Source: a virus
Taxonomy: Duplodnaviria > Heunggongvirae > Uroviricota > Caudoviricetes
IMG/VR virus record: IMGVR_UViG_2513237219_000007
Coordinates: 1 to 37,503 of that record
Strand: one strand, 5' to 3'
DNA length: 37,503 bases
Within the stretch, counting starts at the first letter, position 1; each line of letters begins with the position of its first letter. The translations under genes were made by a program, and so were the position numbers. Under the pieces are notes generated by a model, which was given only the letters and a program-made list of their open reading frames with translations, did not search any database and was not told the DNA's origin. Positions 3,563 to 29,276 of the stretch are shown here, in pieces.

Positions 3563-6500
3563 GCGTCGTATCCCCCCTGATCGCTGTAGTTACTCCTGGC
3601 TTTTGCCTTCAGCCTGCGTTCACGTTCATCAAGCTGGCGTGCCACCTCCCGCGCAATATCCTGCGCACTTTGTCCTGGCTGCGTCTGAATGATGATCTGC
3701 GTCGGTGCCTCAATCCGTTGAACGAGCGGCACAGTGGCTGCGCGACTCACAATTGCTTCTCCACCTTTCGCGGGAAGTGCCAAGGGGTGCAACGGTGGAA
3801 GCTCTGCTGGCGCGGCAGCAACGCCCATCATTCCGGCAACAACGGCAGCCAGTGCAGCTGTATTTCTCCGGCTGGTCACATTTGCCGGGCCGTTAACAAT
3901 TTCCGGCCCGTTTTCACCGACGATGCCAAACTGCCCGCGCGGGATATACCCGCCGCTGTCATACATCCCCGCAAAGCCATATCCCCATGATGGAAAACCA
4001 CCCGATGGCATCATCACTTTACCGTCTGCATTCACCGTCGCAGGTTGCTGACGCGTCACGCTTTCCGGCAGTTTTGCCTTTGCGGCCTCTTTACTGACAA
4101 TGCCGAGCTTCTCCAGCAACCAGGAAACGCCGGATTTCAGGGAGTCCAGCGGATGCATGACCATATTCAGCCCTTCCGCCAGTGCCTCCCCGAATCGCCG
4201 CCCCATTGCCGCTGCGCTCTGCAGTTCGGCAGAGGTCGACTTAACGGGCGTCAGCAGATCAGTAAACCAGCCCCACAGCGCCTGCACTTTGTCGCCAATC
4301 CACTGGAACACGGGCTTAAGCGGTTCGAACGCTGCACTGATGGGACCTGCCGCCGCTTTGAATCCTTCCACCACGCCACCGAGAAATGCGGTGATGGGTT
4401 GCCAGTATTTCCAGACAACCAGCGCCACGCCCGCCAGTGCAGTAACCACAAGACCTATCGGACTGAGCAGAGCACCTAACAGACCAGATATGGCATACAG
4501 GGCAACGCGCAGCATCGCCAGTGGACCAGATGCCAGTACTCGCAGCACCGTGCCTGCGGCGGCCAGTCCACCGCGCAGTACCGCCAGAGGATTCATAAAC
4601 ATCACAGCAACAGCACGTAAACCGGATAATCCAGACCGCAAAAGTGCAACCGGCGCACCTGCTACAGTTTTCAGGACATTTCCCGTCAGTGATGCCGTGC
4701 GGCGCAAAGACGACAACGGCGCAGTAAGTAAACCTGCGGCGTTGCCCGATGAAGCAAGCCCGCGTCGCAGCAGTGCCAGTGGTGCGCCAGCCAGCCAGGA
4801 CAACGCGCTGCTGGTTCGAGTTACTGCTGCCGTAACGGAAGATAACGTTTTGATACCCAACACAGAGAATCCCAGACGGATCACTGCCAGCGGCCCCAGC
4901 ACTGCAGCCAGCGCCACCGCTAAGGTGCCGAGGCCGACGGTAACCGCAGCCACAACAGCCGATGCTTTCATCAGTGTGCCTGTCAGTTCCGGGTTAGCTT
5001 CCACCCAGCGACGCAACGCCCCCGTGACGCTTTTCACCGTGTACAGAATATCCATCAGCGGCTGGCGCAGCGTTTCGCCCAGGCTGCTGAAGGTGTTCTG
5101 CGCTCCGGTTTTGACCAGCAACCACTGCGCAGAAAGTGAATCCTTGTTAATGTCGGATTCTTTCTGCATGGAGCCAAGCGCATCATTGCCCGCTGTCAGT
5201 TTTAACTGACGCTGCAGTTCCGGCAGGTTGTTTGCCAGTTTCGCCGCGTCATCGCCAAACTCTTTACCAAACAACATAGTCATGGCAGACAGGCGCTTGT
5301 CCTGCGGCAGCGCGTTTACCTTCTCCAGCACGCGCTGGATGGTTCCCATCGCATCCTTCGTCATCTGCTTTTCAATCACTTCAGGATTGAGTTTCAGCAG
5401 ATTCATCCCTTCAAAGAAACTCTTGCTTTGCATGGTGGCAATGGACAATTCACGCACCATCGCGTTTGCTGCACTGGCTGCAACCTCTGGCGCAGCGCCC
5501 AGTGTCAGGAAGGTGGAACCCAGCGCCGCCGCTTTACGATAATCCAGACGGTCAGCCACACCGCCCAGACGTTGCATCACATCAATGATGTCTGCCCCTT
5601 TCGACATGGCGTTATCATCCAGATAGTTCAGCGCATCACCGAGCTGTTCAATATTGCGGGTGGGGATTTTGTAGAGCTGGGCGATTTTCCCCAGACTTTC
5701 TGACAGTTCATCCGCTGGCAGCTCAAAGGCTGTTGCCGCCTTTGCTGCCGTACTGGCGAAGGCCAGCAGGTCACGTTTCTGATCTTCCCAGCTGTCGTCA
5801 GGGTTTGCGACGTTCATGCGCGCACCACCTTCAACCAGTGCAGCGAAGTCCACCGCACCGTTTTCCATCGGCAACTGTTCGCTGGCAGCCTTGATGGCAT
5901 CCTGCATTTCATAAAAACGTGCAGTGCGGTTGCCATTATCGTCACGCAGACCATTGACCTGCTTTGCCACACCTTTCATGGCATCTTCCATGCTGGTATA
6001 GCTTTTTACTGCCGCCATCACTGGCGCACCCATTGCCAGCCCTGCAGCCGTGGTGGTGGCTCCGGCACCTGCAATACGATCACGCACCTCCAGCGAACGG
6101 GCATAACTGGCACGCGCTGCATTCATCCTGCGCTGAGCTTCCCCCAGTCGCTTCAGCCGCGCCTCCTGTTTCGAAAGTTCCTGGTTATAACGTGATGTTT
6201 CACGGGCTAAACGGGCAGTTGCTCCCGCATCGTCTTTCGCAGAAATTCCCGCCCGGTACAGTTCAGCACGCACAAGCGCCGTCTGCTGCTGCAGCTTTTT
6301 CTGGCGTTCTTCCAGGCGCTGAACAGCCAGCCGTTGACGGCCCAGAGCAACAACCTGACGTTGCGAAGGCGGCCCCATCGCTCCCAGTTCCTGACTGAGC
6401 AAATTTGCACGCTGGCGGGCATAGTTCAGCCTGTCGCCTAATTTCTGATTTTCTGCCTGCAGCTTTCGGAAGCTGTCCAGACTGCTCCCGGCCTGATCAA

Positions 6501-20916: not shown

Positions 20917-22683
20917 ATGAACACCACACTGACACCCGCAGATCTCGATCCCCGTCGGCAGGCCATGCTGCTGTACTTTCAGGGATACCGCGTAGCCCGC
21001 ATTGCTGAAATGCTGGGCGAGAAAGTTGCAACCGTTCACAGCTGGAAAAAACGCGACAAGTGGGGTGACTATGGGCCGCTGGATCAGATGCAGCTCACCA
21101 CCGCCGCACGCTACTGCCAGCTCATTATGAAGGAGCACAAAGAAGGGAAAGATTTCAAAGAGATTGACCTGCTGGCGCGCCAGTCGGAGCGCCATGCGCG
21201 GATCGGCAAGTTTAACAATGGCGGCAACGAAGCCGACTTAAACCCTAACGTCGCCAACCGCAACAAAGGCCCGCGCCGTCAGCCGGAAAAGAACGTTTTC
21301 ACCGATGAACAGATTGAGAAGTTGGAAGAAATCTTCCATTCCTCCATGTTCAACTACCAGCGCCACTGGTGGGAAGCCGGAAAAACCAACCGCATCCGCA
21401 ACCTGCTGAAGTCACGCCAGATCGGCGCGACCTTCTATTTTGCCCGTGAAGCCCTGATTGACGCCCTGCTAACCGGGCGTAACCAGATTTTCCTTTCCGC
21501 CAGCAAGGCTCAGGCCCACGTCTTTAAGCAGTACATCATCGACTTCGCCAAAGAAGTGGAGGTGGAGCTGAAAGGCGATCCGATGGTGCTTCCTAACGGG
21601 GCCACGCTGTACTTCCTCGGCACCAATGCCCGCACGGCCCAGAGTTACCACGGCAACCTGTATCTGGATGAATATTTCTGGATACCGAAATTCCAGGAGC
21701 TGCGCAAAGTGGCTTCCGGTATGGCTATTCACAAAAAATGGCGACAAACCTATTTTTCCACGCCATCCAGCCTGACACACAGTGCTTATCCGTTCTGGTC
21801 CGGTGCGCTGTTCAACCGAGGGCGCAACAAAGCCGATAAGGTGGACATCGACCTGTCCCACAGCAATCTGGCCCCCGGCCTGCTGTGCGCAGACGGGCAG
21901 TACCGCCAGATAGTCACTGTGGAAGATGCGGTGCGCGGCGGCTGTAACCTGTTCGACCTCGACCAGTTGCGCATGGAGTACAGCCCGGACGAATACCAGA
22001 ACCTGCTGATGTGTGAGTTCGTGGACGATCTCGCGTCTGTGTTCCCACTCAGCGAGCTGCAGGCGTGCATGGTGGACAGTTGGGAAGTCTGGACCGACTT
22101 TCATGCACTGGCCCTGCGCCCGTTTGGCTGGCGCGAAGTGTGGATCGGATATGACCCGGCGAAAGGTACGCAGAACGGCGACAGCGCCGGATGCGTGGTG
22201 GTGGCGCCGCCAGCCGTGCCGGGCGGTAAGTTCCGCATTCTTGAGCGTCACCAGTGGCGCGGAATGGACTTCCGCGCCCAGGCTGACGCCATCAAAAAAC
22301 TGACCGAACAGTACAACGTGACCTATATCGGTATCGACTCAACCGGCGTTGGTCACGGGGTTTACGAGAACGTGAAAGCGTTTTTTCCTGCCGTCCGGGA
22401 GTTTGTCTACAACCCCAACGTTAAAAACGCCCTGGTACTCAAGGCCTACGACATTATCAGCCACCGCCGTCTGGAGTTTGACGCCGGACACACCGACATA
22501 GCGCAGTCCTTTATGGCAATCCGTCGCGCCACCACCGCCAGTGGCAACCGCCCGACCTATGAAGCCAGCCGCAGCGAAGAAGCCAGCCACGCCGATCTGG
22601 CCTGGGCAACGATGCACGCACTGTTTAACGAACCGCTGCAGGGCGAATCCGCCAATACCAGCAATATTGTGGAGATTTTTTGA
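20917..22683 (+). CDS. Terminase ATPase (large) subunit gpP
   Basis: 588-aa ORF, P2 P-like; transcribed divergently from the O operon. Confidence 0.9.
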   Translation: MNTTLTPADLDPRRQAMLLYFQGYRVARIAEMLGEKVATVHSWKKRDKWGDYGPLDQMQLTTAARYCQLIMKEHKEGKDFKEIDLLARQSERHARIGKFNNGGNEADLNPNVANRNKGPRRQPEKNVFTDEQIEKLEEIFHSSMFNYQRHWWEAGKTNRIRNLLKSRQIGATFYFAREALIDALLTGRNQIFLSASKAQAHVFKQYIIDFAKEVEVELKGDPMVLPNGATLYFLGTNARTAQSYHGNLYLDEYFWIPKFQELRKVASGMAIHKKWRQTYFSTPSSLTHSAYPFWSGALFNRGRNKADKVDIDLSHSNLAPGLLCADGQYRQIVTVEDAVRGGCNLFDLDQLRMEYSPDEYQNLLMCEFVDDLASVFPLSELQACMVDSWEVWTDFHALALRPFGWREVWIGYDPAKGTQNGDSAGCVVVAPPAVPGGKFRILERHQWRGMDFRAQADAIKKLTEQYNVTYIGIDSTGVGHGVYENVKAFFPAVREFVYNPNVKNALVLKAYDIISHRRLEFDAGHTDIAQSFMAIRRATTASGNRPTYEASRSEEASHADLAWATMHALFNEPLQGESANTSNIVEIF

Positions 22684-23718
22684 TGGGAAAGAGTAAGAAG
22701 AACCGCGCTGCGGCGACGAAACAGATCCAGCTTAAAAGTCAAACTACAGCCGAAGCATTCAGCTTCGGCGATCCCGTTCCTGTTCTGGACCGCCGAGAAC
22801 TGCTGGATTATGTGGAATGCGTACAGATGGACCGCTGGTATGAGCCGCCCGTCAGCTTTGACGGACTGGCGCGCACCTTCCGCGCTGCCGTTCATCATAG
22901 TTCCCCGATTGCAGTAAAGTGCAACATTCTGACCAGCACCTACATCCCTCACCCGCTGCTCAGCCAGCAGGTCTTTTTCGCGTTTTGTGCAGGACTATCT
23001 GGTATTTGGTAACGCCTACCTGGAGAAACGCACGAACCGCTTCGGTGAAGTTATCGCCCTTGAACCTGCCTTGGCAAAATACACCCGACGCGGGTTAGAC
23101 CTGGATACCTACTGGTTTGTGCAATACGGTATGACCACGCAGCCATATCAGTTCACGAAAGGCAGCATCTTTCATCTGATGGAACCGGACATCAACCAGG
23201 AGATCTACGGCCTGCCCGGTTATCTTTCTGCTATTCCATCCGCCCTGCTCAACGAGTCTGCCACGCTGTTCCGCCGCAAGTATTACATTAACGGCAGTCA
23301 TGCAGGCTTCATCATGTATATGACCGACGCCGCGCAGAACCAGGAAGATGTGAACAACCTCCGCAACGCGATGAAAAGCGCCAAAGGCCCTGGCAACTTC
23401 CGCAACCTGTTTATGTACTCGCCTAACGGCAAAAAGGACGGGCTTCAGATCATCCCGTTGTCAGAAGTCGCAGCGAAAGATGAATTTCTGAACATCAAGA
23501 ACGTGAGCCGGGACGACATGATGGCTGCACACCGCGTACCGCCTCAGATGATGGGAATTTTGCCGAATAATGTTGGGGGGTTTGGGGATGTGGAGAAGGC
23601 AAGTCGGGTATTTGTTCGTAATGAATTAATACCTTTGCAAAAACGTTTCGAAGAATTAAATTTATGGCTAAAAAATAATATTATTACATTCAAAGAATAT
23701 CAACTATCCCTAGACTAA
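22680..23718 (+). pseudogene. Portal protein gpQ, interrupted by a +1 frameshift in a T5 run
   Basis: Two ORFs (22680..23012 and 22987..23718) together span 1039 nt (about 346 codons, P2 Q-size); frame switch maps to the T run at about 22974..22978; removing one T gives continuous ...LLSQQVFSRFVQDYLVFGNAYLEKR... Confidence 0.8.
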
Positions 23719-23723
23719 TTAAT

Positions 23724-23744
23724 AACCACCTCTATGAGGTGGTT
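23724..23744. terminator. Bidirectional hairpin between convergent Q and the AT-rich orphan gene
   Basis: AACCACCTC-TAT-GAGGTGGTT, perfect 9-bp stem. Confidence 0.5.
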
Positions 23745-23765
23745 AACAAGAATAAACCTAATTAA

Positions 23766-25175
23766 TTACTCATCTACTCTGATTTTTTGTTTTTTATTAT
23801 TTTGAGTTAAGACATTTATGGTAATAGATGTATACGGATGAAAGTCAGGAACTATACTTTTAACCTCTCCATTTTCAAGAAAATGATGTGCTATTGAAGG
23901 AAATAAATCAGGATCTACAGGATATTTAGCATTAGGATTATGATACATATTTAAACCTTCTGCCCATGTTTCTGTAATATCGCCTTCTTTCACTTCAAAA
24001 CTAAATGCTGCTGGATATAATGCCTCTGGGTCATGATCATGGCAGTAACCACTCCTAAATAATCTAAGGTCACTTCTTCCAAAACCAGCCAGTTTTCCCA
24101 TCCGATTAAACTTCGATATAGTACCACTATTAGAACTAAGGACGGCCGAAATATTTTCAGACTCATCCAAGAAGAAAAAGCCTGAAGGAATTTCCTTTTT
24201 CTCAAATTGATGCGATATAATTTTCTTAGTTGCTAAACTGTAACATCCATCTTCAGATTTAACATGCTCATAGCGAATACCATAAAGATACTGCCAAAGT
24301 GCACTATGGGACCAAATCATAGAGTTTGGTTCATGAAAATCAGCAATTGCGAAAATTAAAGGATTCCCCTTAACATGTTCTAGATCCCAGTATCGAGTTT
24401 TCTTTTTCAGTTTAGAATAGAGAGAACTTCCAAATTTAATCGGCATATAATTCTCTATTTTCTCTAGCAATTCTTCCTTACTTTTAGGTTCTGATAGCAT
24501 TTCAGATGATTGATTAATATCATTCCCTGTTGGATTAACCGTTACAGCTTCAATGCAAATAGTATTACCATACTTACGTGCCACATAATCAGGGGCATTA
24601 AACTGCCTATCTAGCCAAAAGTGTTCCTCTCGTAAATATGCGAAAAGATATAACTCCCATAGCCGGGCATCAAAACCTGTTGTCTGAAACTGCTCTATAA
24701 AATTCCCGTCGACATCCTCAAAATGATTCATCATTTCCTTGATTATCCCTGTTGCAGGCGACCAGTTCGCGTATTTACCAAATAATGAAAAATGATGATG
24801 AAGTTTATCTGGTGTAACTATAGGTGTGAATAAATCCATTGCTTTATAAGTTTCATCACCTTGTGGAAATACTTTTACGTTTAATTTAGTATGCTTCCGC
24901 ATTAATTTCTTTAGTTTTGCTCGTGCAGAATTCATTTCTGAAACACTAGTAAATAGGTCAATACATCTATATCTCCCACTTAAGTCTCTTGCTAAAACAA
25001 TACCGCTATAATCTTCATCGATTTGATCCAATAATAGTGCCCCTAGCAGGAACTCTCTCGGACTACAGTACCACTCAAACTCATAGCCTAAAAGTTCAGT
25101 ATTTGGCATTCTGGTCCAATCAACAAAAGCATTAAACCTCTCTTTACTCATTTTTTTTATATCAAGAAAAGACAT
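23766..25175 (-). CDS. Hypothetical protein, AT-rich cargo gene between portal gene and putative cos (candidate defence/accessory gene)
   Basis: 469-aa ORF with strongly AT-rich codon usage (roughly one-third GC by eye) against a GC-rich phage backbone; GAGG RBS; no family recognised by me. Confidence 0.6.
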   Translation of the reverse strand: MSFLDIKKMSKERFNAFVDWTRMPNTELLGYEFEWYCSPREFLLGALLLDQIDEDYSGIVLARDLSGRYRCIDLFTSVSEMNSARAKLKKLMRKHTKLNVKVFPQGDETYKAMDLFTPIVTPDKLHHHFSLFGKYANWSPATGIIKEMMNHFEDVDGNFIEQFQTTGFDARLWELYLFAYLREEHFWLDRQFNAPDYVARKYGNTICIEAVTVNPTGNDINQSSEMLSEPKSKEELLEKIENYMPIKFGSSLYSKLKKKTRYWDLEHVKGNPLIFAIADFHEPNSMIWSHSALWQYLYGIRYEHVKSEDGCYSLATKKIISHQFEKKEIPSGFFFLDESENISAVLSSNSGTISKFNRMGKLAGFGRSDLRLFRSGYCHDHDPEALYPAAFSFEVKEGDITETWAEGLNMYHNPNAKYPVDPDLFPSIAHHFLENGEVKSIVPDFHPYTSITINVLTQNNKKQKIRVDE

Positions 25176-25272
25176 CTTTCTACCTCATCACGAAAAAATA
25201 TTTTTTCCTAAAAAGACTTAAGTTAGCTTAATCTATTGATAAAAAAAAGCTAAGTAACGACCAAATACGCGC

Positions 25273-25291
25273 GCTCGTATCCCCGCCACGC
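25273..25291. other. Candidate cos site (cohesive-end region)
   Basis: Minus-strand GGCGTGGCGGGGATACGAG resembles the P2/186 19-nt cohesive end as I recall it (GGCG[A/T]GGCGGGGAAAGCA...); lies between the replication/SOS genes and Q as expected. Confidence 0.4.
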
Positions 25292-25341
25292 CTGCCCGCT
25301 TTATGTAGTGGTTTTCATGCACCTGCATGATCTACGCAAAA

Positions 25342-25361
25342 GCCCGCCAGTTCTGGCGGGC
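25342..25361. terminator. Hairpin downstream of the tum/DinI-like operon
   Basis: GCCCGCCAG-TTC-TGGCGGGC followed by TTTTG on the minus strand. Confidence 0.45.
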
Positions 25362-25496
25362 CTTAGCAAAAACGATCCTCAAACGATCATGCGATCTCAT
25401 GCGGCATAGACATGCACTACAGAGCTAACGCCTCGCAAGGGCTCGTTGTTCAACCTTGCTGACGCCAGAAGCAAGTTCAGACGCCAGCAACGTTTC

Positions 25497-25730
25497 TTAA
25501 TGCAGCCAGCTGTCGTCTTCCCACACCTTCTGCATAATTTTCATCACTTGTTTTCTTTCTTCGTCCAGTTGCAGTCCGGTTAGTTCCACACCGTTAGAGC
25601 TACCTTTGCGAATGCGAATTACCGTTTTGGGATACAGGGGGCGCAGATTGCGGTAAAGCTCGGATTCAAGGGCGTCCAGGGTAGACTGGCTAATCTTCTG
25701 CTCTTTATCGATCATTATTTCAATGCGCAT
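25497..25730 (-). CDS. DinI-like domain ORF (probable C-terminal part of a tum-like SOS antirepressor)
   Basis: MRIEIMIDKEQKISQSTLDALESELYRNLRPLYPKTVIRIRKG...WEDDSWL resembles E. coli DinI; coordinates start at the internal Met. Confidence 0.75.
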   Translation of the reverse strand: MRIEIMIDKEQKISQSTLDALESELYRNLRPLYPKTVIRIRKGSSNGVELTGLQLDEERKQVMKIMQKVWEDDSWLH

Positions 25731-26073: not shown

Positions 26074-28497
26074 TTAATACAGGTTCCGCCACTGATCATC
26101 TTCCTGCAAACGCTGGTTCCGATAGAAGATACGCAGGCCTGCTCCTGACGGAATACTGCCTCCGCGAAGGAGTAAATCGACCTCTTTCTCGCTGCCATCA
26201 AATCCTCTGGACTTCAGCTCATACACGAGCTGCAGTCGCTGATGGTCTGTAATTCGCTGTTTGTAGTCTTTACGCCGTTTCGGTTTCACCAGGCGTAACC
26301 TTGCTGCCAGTTCCCGGCGCTCTTTTTTGCTCATACTGTGCAGGTAATCGTGCAACTCCTTGTCATCCATGCTGGTAATGTCCGTTCTGGGGTCCCCATC
26401 AGCTGATTTATCTTTCTCCTGTTGGTTCAAATTTTCAGCAAGGGGACAGTTATTGCCACGAGTCCAAGGGGCGCAAGCGCCCTGGTCGGCTGCCGCCTCC
26501 TGAACGTCAACGGCTTTACGAACCATTTTCCACTTCACTGCATGAGTGCAGATCTTGCCCTCTGCAATGGGTGACCAGATGCCATAAATACGAATGCCGT
26601 GATCGCCATAGGCGGTCGGCTCTTCGTTAATTTCATAAGCTGTTCTGATAAGGTGATATTTGCGGGGAACCAGCACGCCGCCCTGCTTCATGATGTAGGT
26701 GGCAAAACAGCCAGCATCAGCAGCAGCCAGGATGGCATCAAGGCGTGGGTTATCCAGTACCGGCGCACCTGCTTTTTTGTCCCCCTGCTGCCTTGCCGCC
26801 TGACCAGCCAGCAATCGCAGTTCACGGTAAGCCTGACGCCCCGGAATACCAAAGAAGCGGAATTGCTGAACACGATGCAGAGACGCCCAGGCATTAACGT
26901 ATTCAGCGTTATCACGCAGGGATTTACCCGTTTCCTTGCTGATCTCACCAGCCAGACCACGCCCGTCAATGTTCTTACTGATGTATTTCGCGATGTAGCT
27001 TGTTGGCGTACCTTTGCGCGGGTTTATCAGCTCAGACTTAAAGCGTGGTCCCGTGTTATTACCCAGCTCCTCGCGGTCTTCACGAATGGAAAACTTACGC
27101 AACAAAGCAGTAATGGCTCGGCGATCTTTTTTGCGCATAAAACACAACAGGTGCCAGTGAACTGTACCGTCATGATGCGGCTCAGCCACCCGCACGCCAT
27201 ACCAGCGCAATCCAGCTTTGTGCATCGCTTTACGAAATGCAGCAAACATGCCGACCAGATAATCACTGCTTTGTCTTACCGTCGCGTTTGTCCAGGTCGG
27301 GTTTGGTCTGCCGTTATTTAGCGTGGAATGGAAACGTGACGGACAGGTGATGGTGTAGAAAACGGCGCAGTCACCGCGCATTTCCGCGATAAGCTCCAGA
27401 CCTTTAACACAGGCCATCATCTCATTGCGGCGATGCGCAGGGTTGCTGCTGCTGGCGTTTACCACGTCTTCCATATCCAGCGTGTCGCCGTCTTCGTTCA
27501 CCAGTTCATGAGAACGAAAAAACTCCAGCGACTTACGGCGCTGCTCACGTTTATGCATCACGGCTTCATAGCTGACATAGGGAGATGCTTTTTTGCTGAC
27601 CAGGCAGACAGCGCGCAACTGCTCTTCCCGCCATTCGCAACGCATCTTCCATAATTTCCGATACCACCAGTCGGCGCACAACATACGCGCCAGCGAACCC
27701 GGAATGAGTTCATAGGGCACGGGTTTACGGCGGTTTCTTTTCCGGCGGAGTTGCTCAAACGCAGGTGGAATGACATCCAGTCGCAGGGTTTCTGCTGCCA
27801 CCCTTTCCCATGTCTTGCGGATTTCTTCTGGCTTAACGTCATCGGTGGCATACAAATCACCACAAGCGTCATCAAGACACATGCTCATATGCGCAGCGAC
27901 AAGGGTAGACAGGCGTTTCACCTGATCCTGACTCATTTCAGGCAGGATCAGCAGACCGTCCAGCCCTTCATGGCTTGCCATAAAACGAAAAGATGCAGAT
28001 AGCTGGCTGTCGCGTACATGCTCCAGTCGTTCCAGACATGGCTTAATCGTCTCACGCAAATAGCGGGAATAAGCCTTTGGCCTGCCCAGGCTGCTGAAAT
28101 ATTCAATACGTTGCATCAGCGGCTTGCTGATATGGGAAGGCTGGGCGTTGACGTCAGCCAGAATGACCATGTCCGGATTAAAACGCTGCTGCTCATGCGC
28201 CAGCTTTGCCCGACTAATGAGCTTATCCTGCTCCATTTCGCGCTGGACAGGATCACGGGATTCATTAAAGAAATAACGCTCCCAGACCTGATCACTCAGT
28301 ACCTCGCGGCGCAGGTGTTCCTGCTCGTTATCGGCAGCGTACAGAGCGATCAGGTTTGAAAGCGCAGAAACTGAAGATTGCTCTTCTGTCCCTACGTAAG
28401 GATTGATTGCTTTTTTCTCAGCATTCCAGGAATAGCTGTAGTTCATTACGCAATCTCCAGTTCGAGCTGTGAAGGCTGCAAACCATTCGACAGCCAA
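26074..28497 (-). CDS. Replication initiation protein gpA (rolling-circle nickase)
   Basis: 807-aa ORF with the tandem-tyrosine motif YIAKYISK characteristic of P2 A-type initiators. Confidence 0.85.
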
Positions 28498-29276
28498 TCA
28501 GAAACTGAAGGTGGGCGAACAGCTTCAATTGCACCTTTTAAAATTGCGCAACGGTTTTTCAGAATGACAGCTTTCAGCTCCTTTTCCGTCAGATTGCGCG
28601 AATACTCAGCCTCCTGAATAGCCCGCGTAAGCTCAGGATATTTGCTATTAAATTTGGGGACATTGCAGGCAAGATTTGTACTGTCGGCAGTCGCCAGTGG
28701 GTAATTTCCCAACACACGACCGTCAAGCATGCGCAAACCATGAACAGCTGTTTTGAAATTGTGTCGGCAATAAATTGCTTCAAAAGCGTCCTGCATACGA
28801 CGATGCCAGTGCGCAGTTCTGATAGCCGCATATTCACCAGACGATCCAAAACAGACACGAGGCCATTCACGACATAGCTCGATAAGCCGATCGATTGACT
28901 CGTGCAGATGCCAGACGGGAGTTGCCTTCCCGTAGAACATTTTCGGAACTTCGTTTATCAGGGCATCATTGTCACGTTCACCGCCGTCCACAACATCAGG
29001 AATGACAAAAAAAGCGACCTTAGGATGGTGGTAATAGTTCAGGAGCCATTTATAAAAATCACTCCAGTTAATTTTTAGCCCACGCACCCATGCAGAAAAT
29101 GCGCCGTTATCAATGCCGACGACCTGAGCGTGCTGAATGGACGCCGCAATCTGATCTGGTCGTACATAGGAGACGAAAGCGCCAGCTCCGCTCACCGCAA
29201 TACGATGAACTTCGCCAGCACTTCCCCAGACAGGCGTCCCATGGAAATGATGAATTCCGTGGTGCATTTCTTTCAC
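28446..29276 (-). CDS. Hypothetical protein, translationally coupled to Dam methyltransferase
   Basis: 276-aa ORF whose start overlaps the dam stop by 4 nt; no family recognised. Confidence 0.5.

Follow-up and report, generated by a model that had tools for sequence, protein, structure and literature searches.

The window, that is, the whole stretch of 37,503 nucleotides analysed here, is Escherichia coli chromosomal DNA carrying a P2/186-like prophage. Adjacent to the portal gene Q, the ORF listing contains a minus-strand CDS with an ATG start that encodes a protein of 469 aa (54.5 kDa, pI 6.0) without a transmembrane segment. The gene has a GC content of 0.35 and a GC3 of 0.26, compared with a GC content of 0.546 for genes P and Q together and a GC3 of 0.72 for the terminase gene P, so that flanking phage genes at about 55% GC surround a gene at 35%. 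By a simple calculation, the chance of a 469-codon open frame in DNA of 35% GC is ~1e-15. An initial annotation of this DNA had described an AT-rich minus-strand gene with its own ribosome-binding site, and both points hold: a Shine-Dalgarno motif precedes the start codon. The coordinates of the features are collected in Table 1.

Table 1. Features of the locus between genes Q and A, with positions in the window.
Feature	Position	Strand	Basis or remark
Portal gene Q	22684..23718	+	brackets the variable cargo
AT-rich cassette-specific 3' tail of Q	23633..23718	+	left-hand boundary of the swapped module
Perfect 10-bp stem with 3-nt loop	23722..23744		between the stop codons of convergent Q (23718) and the 469-aa gene
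469-aa gene	23766..25175	-	ORF listing
C-terminal beta-rich domain, ~aa 290-458	23802..24308	-	invariant K355, F356, R358, E402
Predicted PD-(D/E)xK (restriction-endonuclease-like) core, ~aa 150-285	24321..24728	-	alpha/beta; invariant R171, E174, P195-D196, E209, K255
N-terminal domain, ~aa 1-105	24861..25175	-	four-stranded beta-meander and long helix; AlphaFold2 model
Shine-Dalgarno motif GAGG	25183..25186	-	7 nt before the ATG of the 469-aa gene; read from sequence
Conserved GCGCGCG beside the cos 19-mer	25266..25273		with cos (25266..25292), right-hand boundary of the variable cassette
cos, 19-nt cohesive-end equivalent CTCGTATCCCCGCCACGCC	25274..25292		BLAST to the circularised P2 junction and prophage alignment
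Intrinsic terminator, GC-rich 11-bp stem then TTTT	25338..25364	-	closes the DinI/early operon before cos
Replication gene A (gpA)	26074..28497		brackets the variable cargo
276-aa ORF	28446..29276	-	just downstream of gene A

The hairpin between the two convergent genes had been called a terminator. Its perfect stem is real and folds with -14.7 and -15.4 kcal/mol on the two strands (RNAfold), but the terminator scan did not list it and no clean T-run follows it on either strand; it is probably a bidirectional terminator. On the other side of the gene, the 60 nt around the intrinsic terminator of the early operon fold with -27.6 kcal/mol (RNAfold). Given that this terminator ends the early operon, the 469-aa gene needs its own promoter within the next ~160 bp. 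A promoter scan returned no consensus sigma-70 site (at least 9 of 12 positions) in the 95 bp upstream of the gene, and the minus-strand sites that it listed fall inside the gene itself or inside Q. Since the consensus scan found none upstream, we infer the existence of this promoter from the arrangement of the locus.

The position of cos was established in two ways. When the joined ends of circularised P2 were compared with the window by BLAST, positions 25324..25280 matched the cosR flank plus the initial 13 nt of the cohesive end. An alignment of eight prophages and P2 showed that a block, GCGCGCG-CTCGTATCCCCGCCACGCC-TGCCCGCTTT..., is conserved in the window, in seven other E. coli P2-like prophages and in P2, and that all similarity ends about 8 nt on the Q side of the cos 19-mer. 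Together, the BLAST match and the shared block define cos and place the 469-aa gene between cos and Q, where it had been located in the initial annotation. A search of the window for the P2 cos 19-mer, allowing up to three mismatches, gave no match because the right third of the 19-mer differs.

Over the region 23600..25500, strain MSB1_4I matches the window at 100% identity, S88 and others do so at 99.8%, and about 1,260 E. coli records match it only from position 25268 onward. At the opposite end, the seven other E. coli prophages cease to be homologous to Q at the nucleotide level 20-85 nt before its stop codon (23633..23700), the C-terminal peptides still being similar; GC content falls to 0.25 from position 23600, and the AT-rich C-terminal tail of the portal comes in a separate version with each cassette. 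These limits of homology, in the Q tail and near cos, delineate an exchangeable cassette from ~23633 to ~25265, ending about 8 nt from cos. They also hint that recombination, at cos and inside the tail of the portal gene, drives the exchange of cargo in the hotspot.

Variable cargo next to cos, bracketed by gpA and Q, has been published as a defence hotspot of P2-like prophages, namely the cos-proximal gpA-gpQ hotspot of Rousset 2022 (PMC9122126) and hotspot #1 of Vassallo 2022 (PMC9519451). We compared the slot among prophages. In the seven other E. coli P2-like prophages, the cos-Q cargo comprises TIGR02391, small hypothetical, DUF4145 and DprA-like proteins, a three-gene set with a STAS-like protein, a P-loop NTPase and a 208-aa hypothetical protein. 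The cargo is convergent with Q except in 22AR0322, whose 208-aa hypothetical gene runs in the same direction as Q. Further variable genes lie on the cosR side of these seven prophages. The locus had also been equated with the segment in which P2 carries old and tin. In P2, these genes lie across cos, between orf91 and cosR, and the 167 bp from Q to cos contain no gene. The equation thus holds only if the gpA-gpQ interval is taken as a whole; the 469-aa gene occupies a different sub-slot on the other side of cos.

Two further features of the prophage were recorded. Gene Q contains an extra T at position 22972 relative to the otherwise 99.3%-identical MSB1_4I prophage, which splits it into two ORFs (22680..23012 and 22987..23718); this reflects either a defective prophage or a sequencing error. 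The 276-aa ORF downstream of the replication gene lies in a ~980-bp stretch unlike MSB1_4I and matches PHROG 887 ('queuine tRNA-ribosyltransferase', E=4e-96), with no Pfam or PADLOC match. The PHROG match suggests a DpdA-like enzyme, which could possibly provide 7-deazaguanine DNA modification as an anti-restriction activity.

The 469-aa gene had been regarded as an orphan of no assignable family. Profile searches gave a different picture. The PADLOC model for PD-T7-1 (PDLC04073) matched aa 7-457 over profile positions 2-449 of 452, with E=1.3e-196 and 651.7 bits, a score within the range of other mainstream members of the family. A second PADLOC model, PD-T7-5 (PDLC04110), matched aa 113-436 (E=1.4e-56), and PHROG 8571, of unknown function, matched aa 108-465 (E=5e-152). 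By sequence, the protein is thus a full-length member of the PD-T7-1 family. Among 8,000 candidates scored, more than 3,700 homologues were retrieved at E<=1e-3, and the representative library contained 1,778 homologue clusters at 50% identity. The same protein is present in RefSeq as WP_000008839.1, annotated 'hypothetical protein', and the exact sequence occurs on at least 1,000 contigs. The allele was found in 25 out of 5,426 complete E. coli genomes, always on the chromosome and always annotated 'hypothetical protein'; a blastn search in 'distant' mode detected no divergent alleles in E. coli genomes. In two broiler-chicken E. coli strains, 33-6 (NZ_CP050031.1, 1136354..1138540) and 58-3 (NZ_CP050036.1), this same gene of the PD-T7-1 family is interrupted by IS1.

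Nor is the gene undescribed, as had been proposed. The family was published in 2022 and is included in PADLOC, and WP_000008839 is already listed as 'hypothetical' among the P2 hotspot arrangements in Table S5A of Rousset et al. 2022 (PMC9122126), so that both the family and this exact protein in its hotspot are known. Generic domain databases were less informative. Pfam contains no family for the protein or for its nuclease core, the 65 homologues included, and its sole match was to a TPR fusion carried by a single homologue; the only NCBIfam result (E=0.07) was spurious, and a profile search against PDB sequences returned nothing, the best result being gramicidin synthetase at E=0.8. We confirmed that the protein lacks a Walker A motif.

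Homologues were also found outside E. coli P2-like prophages. An Erwinia P2-like prophage carries a 74%-identical homologue in the same slot, a 50%-identical homologue in Burkholderia lies within a type I R-M island, and a Pseudomonas homologue is located in a small variable region whose genes have no obvious role in defence. There is no conserved partner gene, the neighbours differing entirely among the Erwinia, Burkholderia, Pseudomonas, mEp460 and Yersinia phage loci. The single-gene module of the initial annotation, flanked here by cos and the portal gene, is consistent with this diversity.

Several other assignments were considered and rejected. A protein like P2 Old, an ABC-type ATPase with Walker A and TOPRIM, was discarded given the missing Walker A motif, the lack of Pfam matches and PADLOC matches confined to PD-T7-1 and PD-T7-5. 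Tin-, TIR- and Sir2-like assignments had no supporting domain or PADLOC matches. No modified-base reader or Mrr/McrBC/GmrSD-type Pfam domain was detected in the protein or in the 65 homologues, which led us to reject a type IV-like assignment. The name 'glycosaminoglycan attachment protein', given to some homologues in databases, was set aside as uninformative, no domain match standing behind it.

PD-T7-1 has experimental support as a defence system. According to Vassallo et al. 2022 (PMC9519451), it was selected on T7 from an ECOR46 fosmid and cloned with its native promoter, and its protection is stronger against the T-even phages T2, T4 and T6 than against T7. The label 'Nuclease' that it received there derives from weak HHpred matches, to Hjc (80% probability), PDDEXK_5 and RmuC, covering residues ~171-219. 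In K-12, the PD-T7-1 of strain NILS69 protected against a Teseptimavirus and reduced the size of T7 plaques, while no phenotype was reported for its deletion in the native host NILS69 (PMC12409345). Later surveys place PD-T7-1 among single-gene PD-(D/E)xK systems. In the literature searched, we found no account of its trigger, its substrate or its mode of action, direct or abortive.

The reference protein RCQ85672.1 of E. coli ECOR46 is encoded by a gene of 1350 nt. A 449-aa type found in E. coli and Yersinia phages is probably this validated protein, as judged from the 1350-nt gene size and the HHpred numbering. It is 33% identical to the 469-aa protein and scores 521 bits with the PADLOC PD-T7-1 model, compared with 651 bits for the 469-aa protein. 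The 449-aa type was located at positions 3989..5338 of the loci extracted from Yersinia phage VB-YPM-4 and phage mEp460_ev081. In the Yersinia Peduoviruses, it lies between the genes for tail sheath FI and tail fibre, which is the Z/fun position, a different P2 hotspot; in the lambdoid phage mEp460_ev081, it is flanked by replication genes on one side and by the Q antiterminator on the other. The presence of this type in both the Z/fun slot and a lambdoid locus indicates that the family moves between unrelated phage hotspots.

An AlphaFold2 model built from 39 homologues was confident (pLDDT 88.5, pTM 0.89) and showed three parts. The N-terminal domain is a putative sensor or regulatory domain; it is missing in PD-T7-5-type and PHROG 8571 relatives, and other relatives have a C-terminal extension instead. 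A TPR-repeat fusion was observed in one distant homologue, probably the 671-aa P0145. The fusion and the C-terminal extensions replacing the N-terminal domain suggest that accessory domains are swappable in this nuclease family. The C-terminal domain possibly binds nucleic acid. Across 65 homologues whose alignment columns average 25% identity, twelve residues are invariant: R171, E174, P195, D196, E209, K255, F334, A344, K355, F356, R358 and E402.

In the model, E174 is on helix 168-183, P195-D196 is at the start of strand 197-201 and E209 is on strand 204-213, so that E174, D196 and E209 occupy the classic placement of a PD-(D/E)xK acidic triad. The position of the canonical (D/E)xK lysine is taken by V211 (E209-A-V211), and the invariant K255 is located on the next helix; as a guess, K255 is a candidate for the substitute catalytic lysine. 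In bona fide PD-(D/E)xK enzymes, lysines that have migrated elsewhere in the fold are known. The core is thus predicted to have a PD-(D/E)xK-type nuclease fold with invariant acidic residues, and the initial view that the protein bears no clear nuclease signature has to be abandoned. A Foldseek search of the confident three-part model against the PDB gave no match at E<=0.001; the one result that made sense was a short local similarity to Hjc.

Given the membership in the PD-T7-1 family and the hotspot context, the proposal that this is a defence gene is supported: the PADLOC match to a validated family is full-length, and the gene lies in the gpA-gpQ hotspot. Our preferred reading, to which we assign a probability of roughly 75%, is that the gene encodes a single-polypeptide PD-T7-1 anti-phage protein, a lysogen-expressed nuclease whose gene forms a lysogenic-conversion cassette in the hotspot next to cos of a P2-like prophage of E. 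coli. The anti-phage activity of this particular allele is attributed to it by family and context. A weak promoter between cos and the ATG would drive synthesis of the protein in the lysogen. When a competing phage infects the cell, the metal-dependent nuclease core of the protein would cut nucleic acid, most probably phage DNA. As there is no methylase or antitoxin partner, the discrimination between self and non-self would have to be built into the protein itself. The cue that we favour is either a form of DNA specific to phages, such as ends or branched replication and recombination intermediates, or a phage protein acting as a trigger, and it would be sensed via the variable N-terminal domain or the C-terminal domain. 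Recognition of base modifications is not favoured, because unmodified T7 and the glucosyl-hmC T-even phages are both restricted.

A tentative alternative, possible but clearly less probable than direct cleavage of phage DNA, is that PD-T7-1 proteins act by abortive infection, the nuclease staying inactive until infection and then degrading host and phage nucleic acid indiscriminately, so that the infected cell is killed and the lysogen population is protected. The extra N- and C-terminal domains could gate such a nuclease, the absence of an immunity or methylase partner fits, and restriction of phages with very different DNA chemistry would be easier through a general infection trigger. Precedents point both ways: in Vassallo et al. 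(PMC9519451), 12 out of 21 systems behaved abortively, but direct immunity was found for 7 out of 11 systems with a putative DNase. The sequence itself does not discriminate between the two modes. We also considered a type IV-like, modification-dependent restriction enzyme recognising the hypermodified cytosine of T-even DNA. The stronger protection against T2, T4 and T6 than against T7 would suit such an enzyme, as would a single-chain PD-(D/E)xK protein without a methylase, an organisation shared by many type IV enzymes. However, T7, on which the system was selected, and the second Teseptimavirus on which it acts both have unmodified DNA; Pfam matched no reader of modified bases, be it Mrr, McrBC, GmrSD, SRA or another; and Vassallo et al. 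(PMC9519451) state that their orphan DNases are all unlike type IV enzymes. We, therefore, consider this reading very unlikely.

It is quite unlikely, though a shade less so, that the PD-(D/E)xK-like core is dead or is not a DNase, the protein being a binder or sensor that blocks phage DNA or a phage protein, or else an RNA cutter. The invariance of E174, D196 and E209 across 65 sequences that average only 25% column identity is the pattern of a metal-dependent active site rather than a decayed one, and a migrated lysine, as noted above, has precedent in genuine enzymes of this fold. The least probable explanation, and a highly improbable one, is a non-defence accessory gene serving prophage DNA metabolism or host physiology. 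The hotspot does carry partition systems and a cytolethal distending toxin as well (Rousset et al., PMC9122126), and the Pseudomonas neighbourhood without obvious defence genes and the 'glycosaminoglycan' name of some homologues might be read in the same way. Against this, the name has no domain match behind it, anti-phage activity has been measured for family members, and the two strains with an IS1-disrupted gene have retained the prophage. With the allele in so few of the complete E. coli genomes, the phage does not need the gene.

A further proposal, which we hold to be unlikely, is that the branch to which the 469-aa protein belongs is a distinct orphan nuclease, with an E-x-V site completed by the K255 lysine and an N-terminal cystatin/WGR-like domain sensing DNA ends or branched phage DNA. 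If true, this would be an undescribed way for a methylase-less single-chain nuclease to tell phage from host DNA. The means by which methylase-less orphan nucleases spare host DNA are a general question in phage defence, to which this locus gives no new access. The main value of the analysis is that of a correction: what seemed an orphan that could not be assigned is a defence gene already catalogued, as is its hotspot, and a PADLOC or DefenseFinder run would label it at once. It also offers handles for work on mechanism, namely a confident full-length model, E174, D196, E209 and K255 as candidates for catalysis, a layout of three domains and exact cassette boundaries.

Among known systems, Shedu, Gao_Upx and Hachiman HamA show no relationship to the 469-aa protein at the sequence level, have no PADLOC match with it and differ in their accessory domains. 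The structure-specific PD-(D/E)xK nucleases Hjc, VRR-NUC and FAN1 share 10-24% identity with it; unlike them, the 469-aa protein lacks the canonical lysine and has its core embedded with two extra domains. PD-T7-5 and PHROG 8571 proteins have a homologous nuclease core and C-terminal domain but lack the ~105-aa N-terminal domain, which is thus the part that tells PD-T7-1 from PD-T7-5, and the PD-T7-5 match of the 469-aa protein is much weaker than its PD-T7-1 match. P2 Old and Tin resemble the 469-aa gene in being AT-rich lysogenic-conversion anti-phage genes of the cos-proximal gpA-gpQ hotspot, and they are served by a promoter of their own close to cos. Neither is homologous to the 469-aa protein, Old being an ATPase-TOPRIM nuclease and Tin unrelated; moreover, transcription of old and tin, on the cosR side, runs towards A, whereas that of the 469-aa gene, on the cosL side, runs from cos to Q. 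The closest known system is PD-T7-1 of ECOR46, which, like the 469-aa allele, is a single gene with a three-part architecture and an E...PD...E-x region linked by HHpred to Hjc and PDDEXK. Its family, like this allele, occurs in prophage and defence-island contexts, with the 469-aa allele at the cos-Q slot and the 449-aa type at the Z/fun slot of Yersinia Peduoviruses and in a lambdoid phage.
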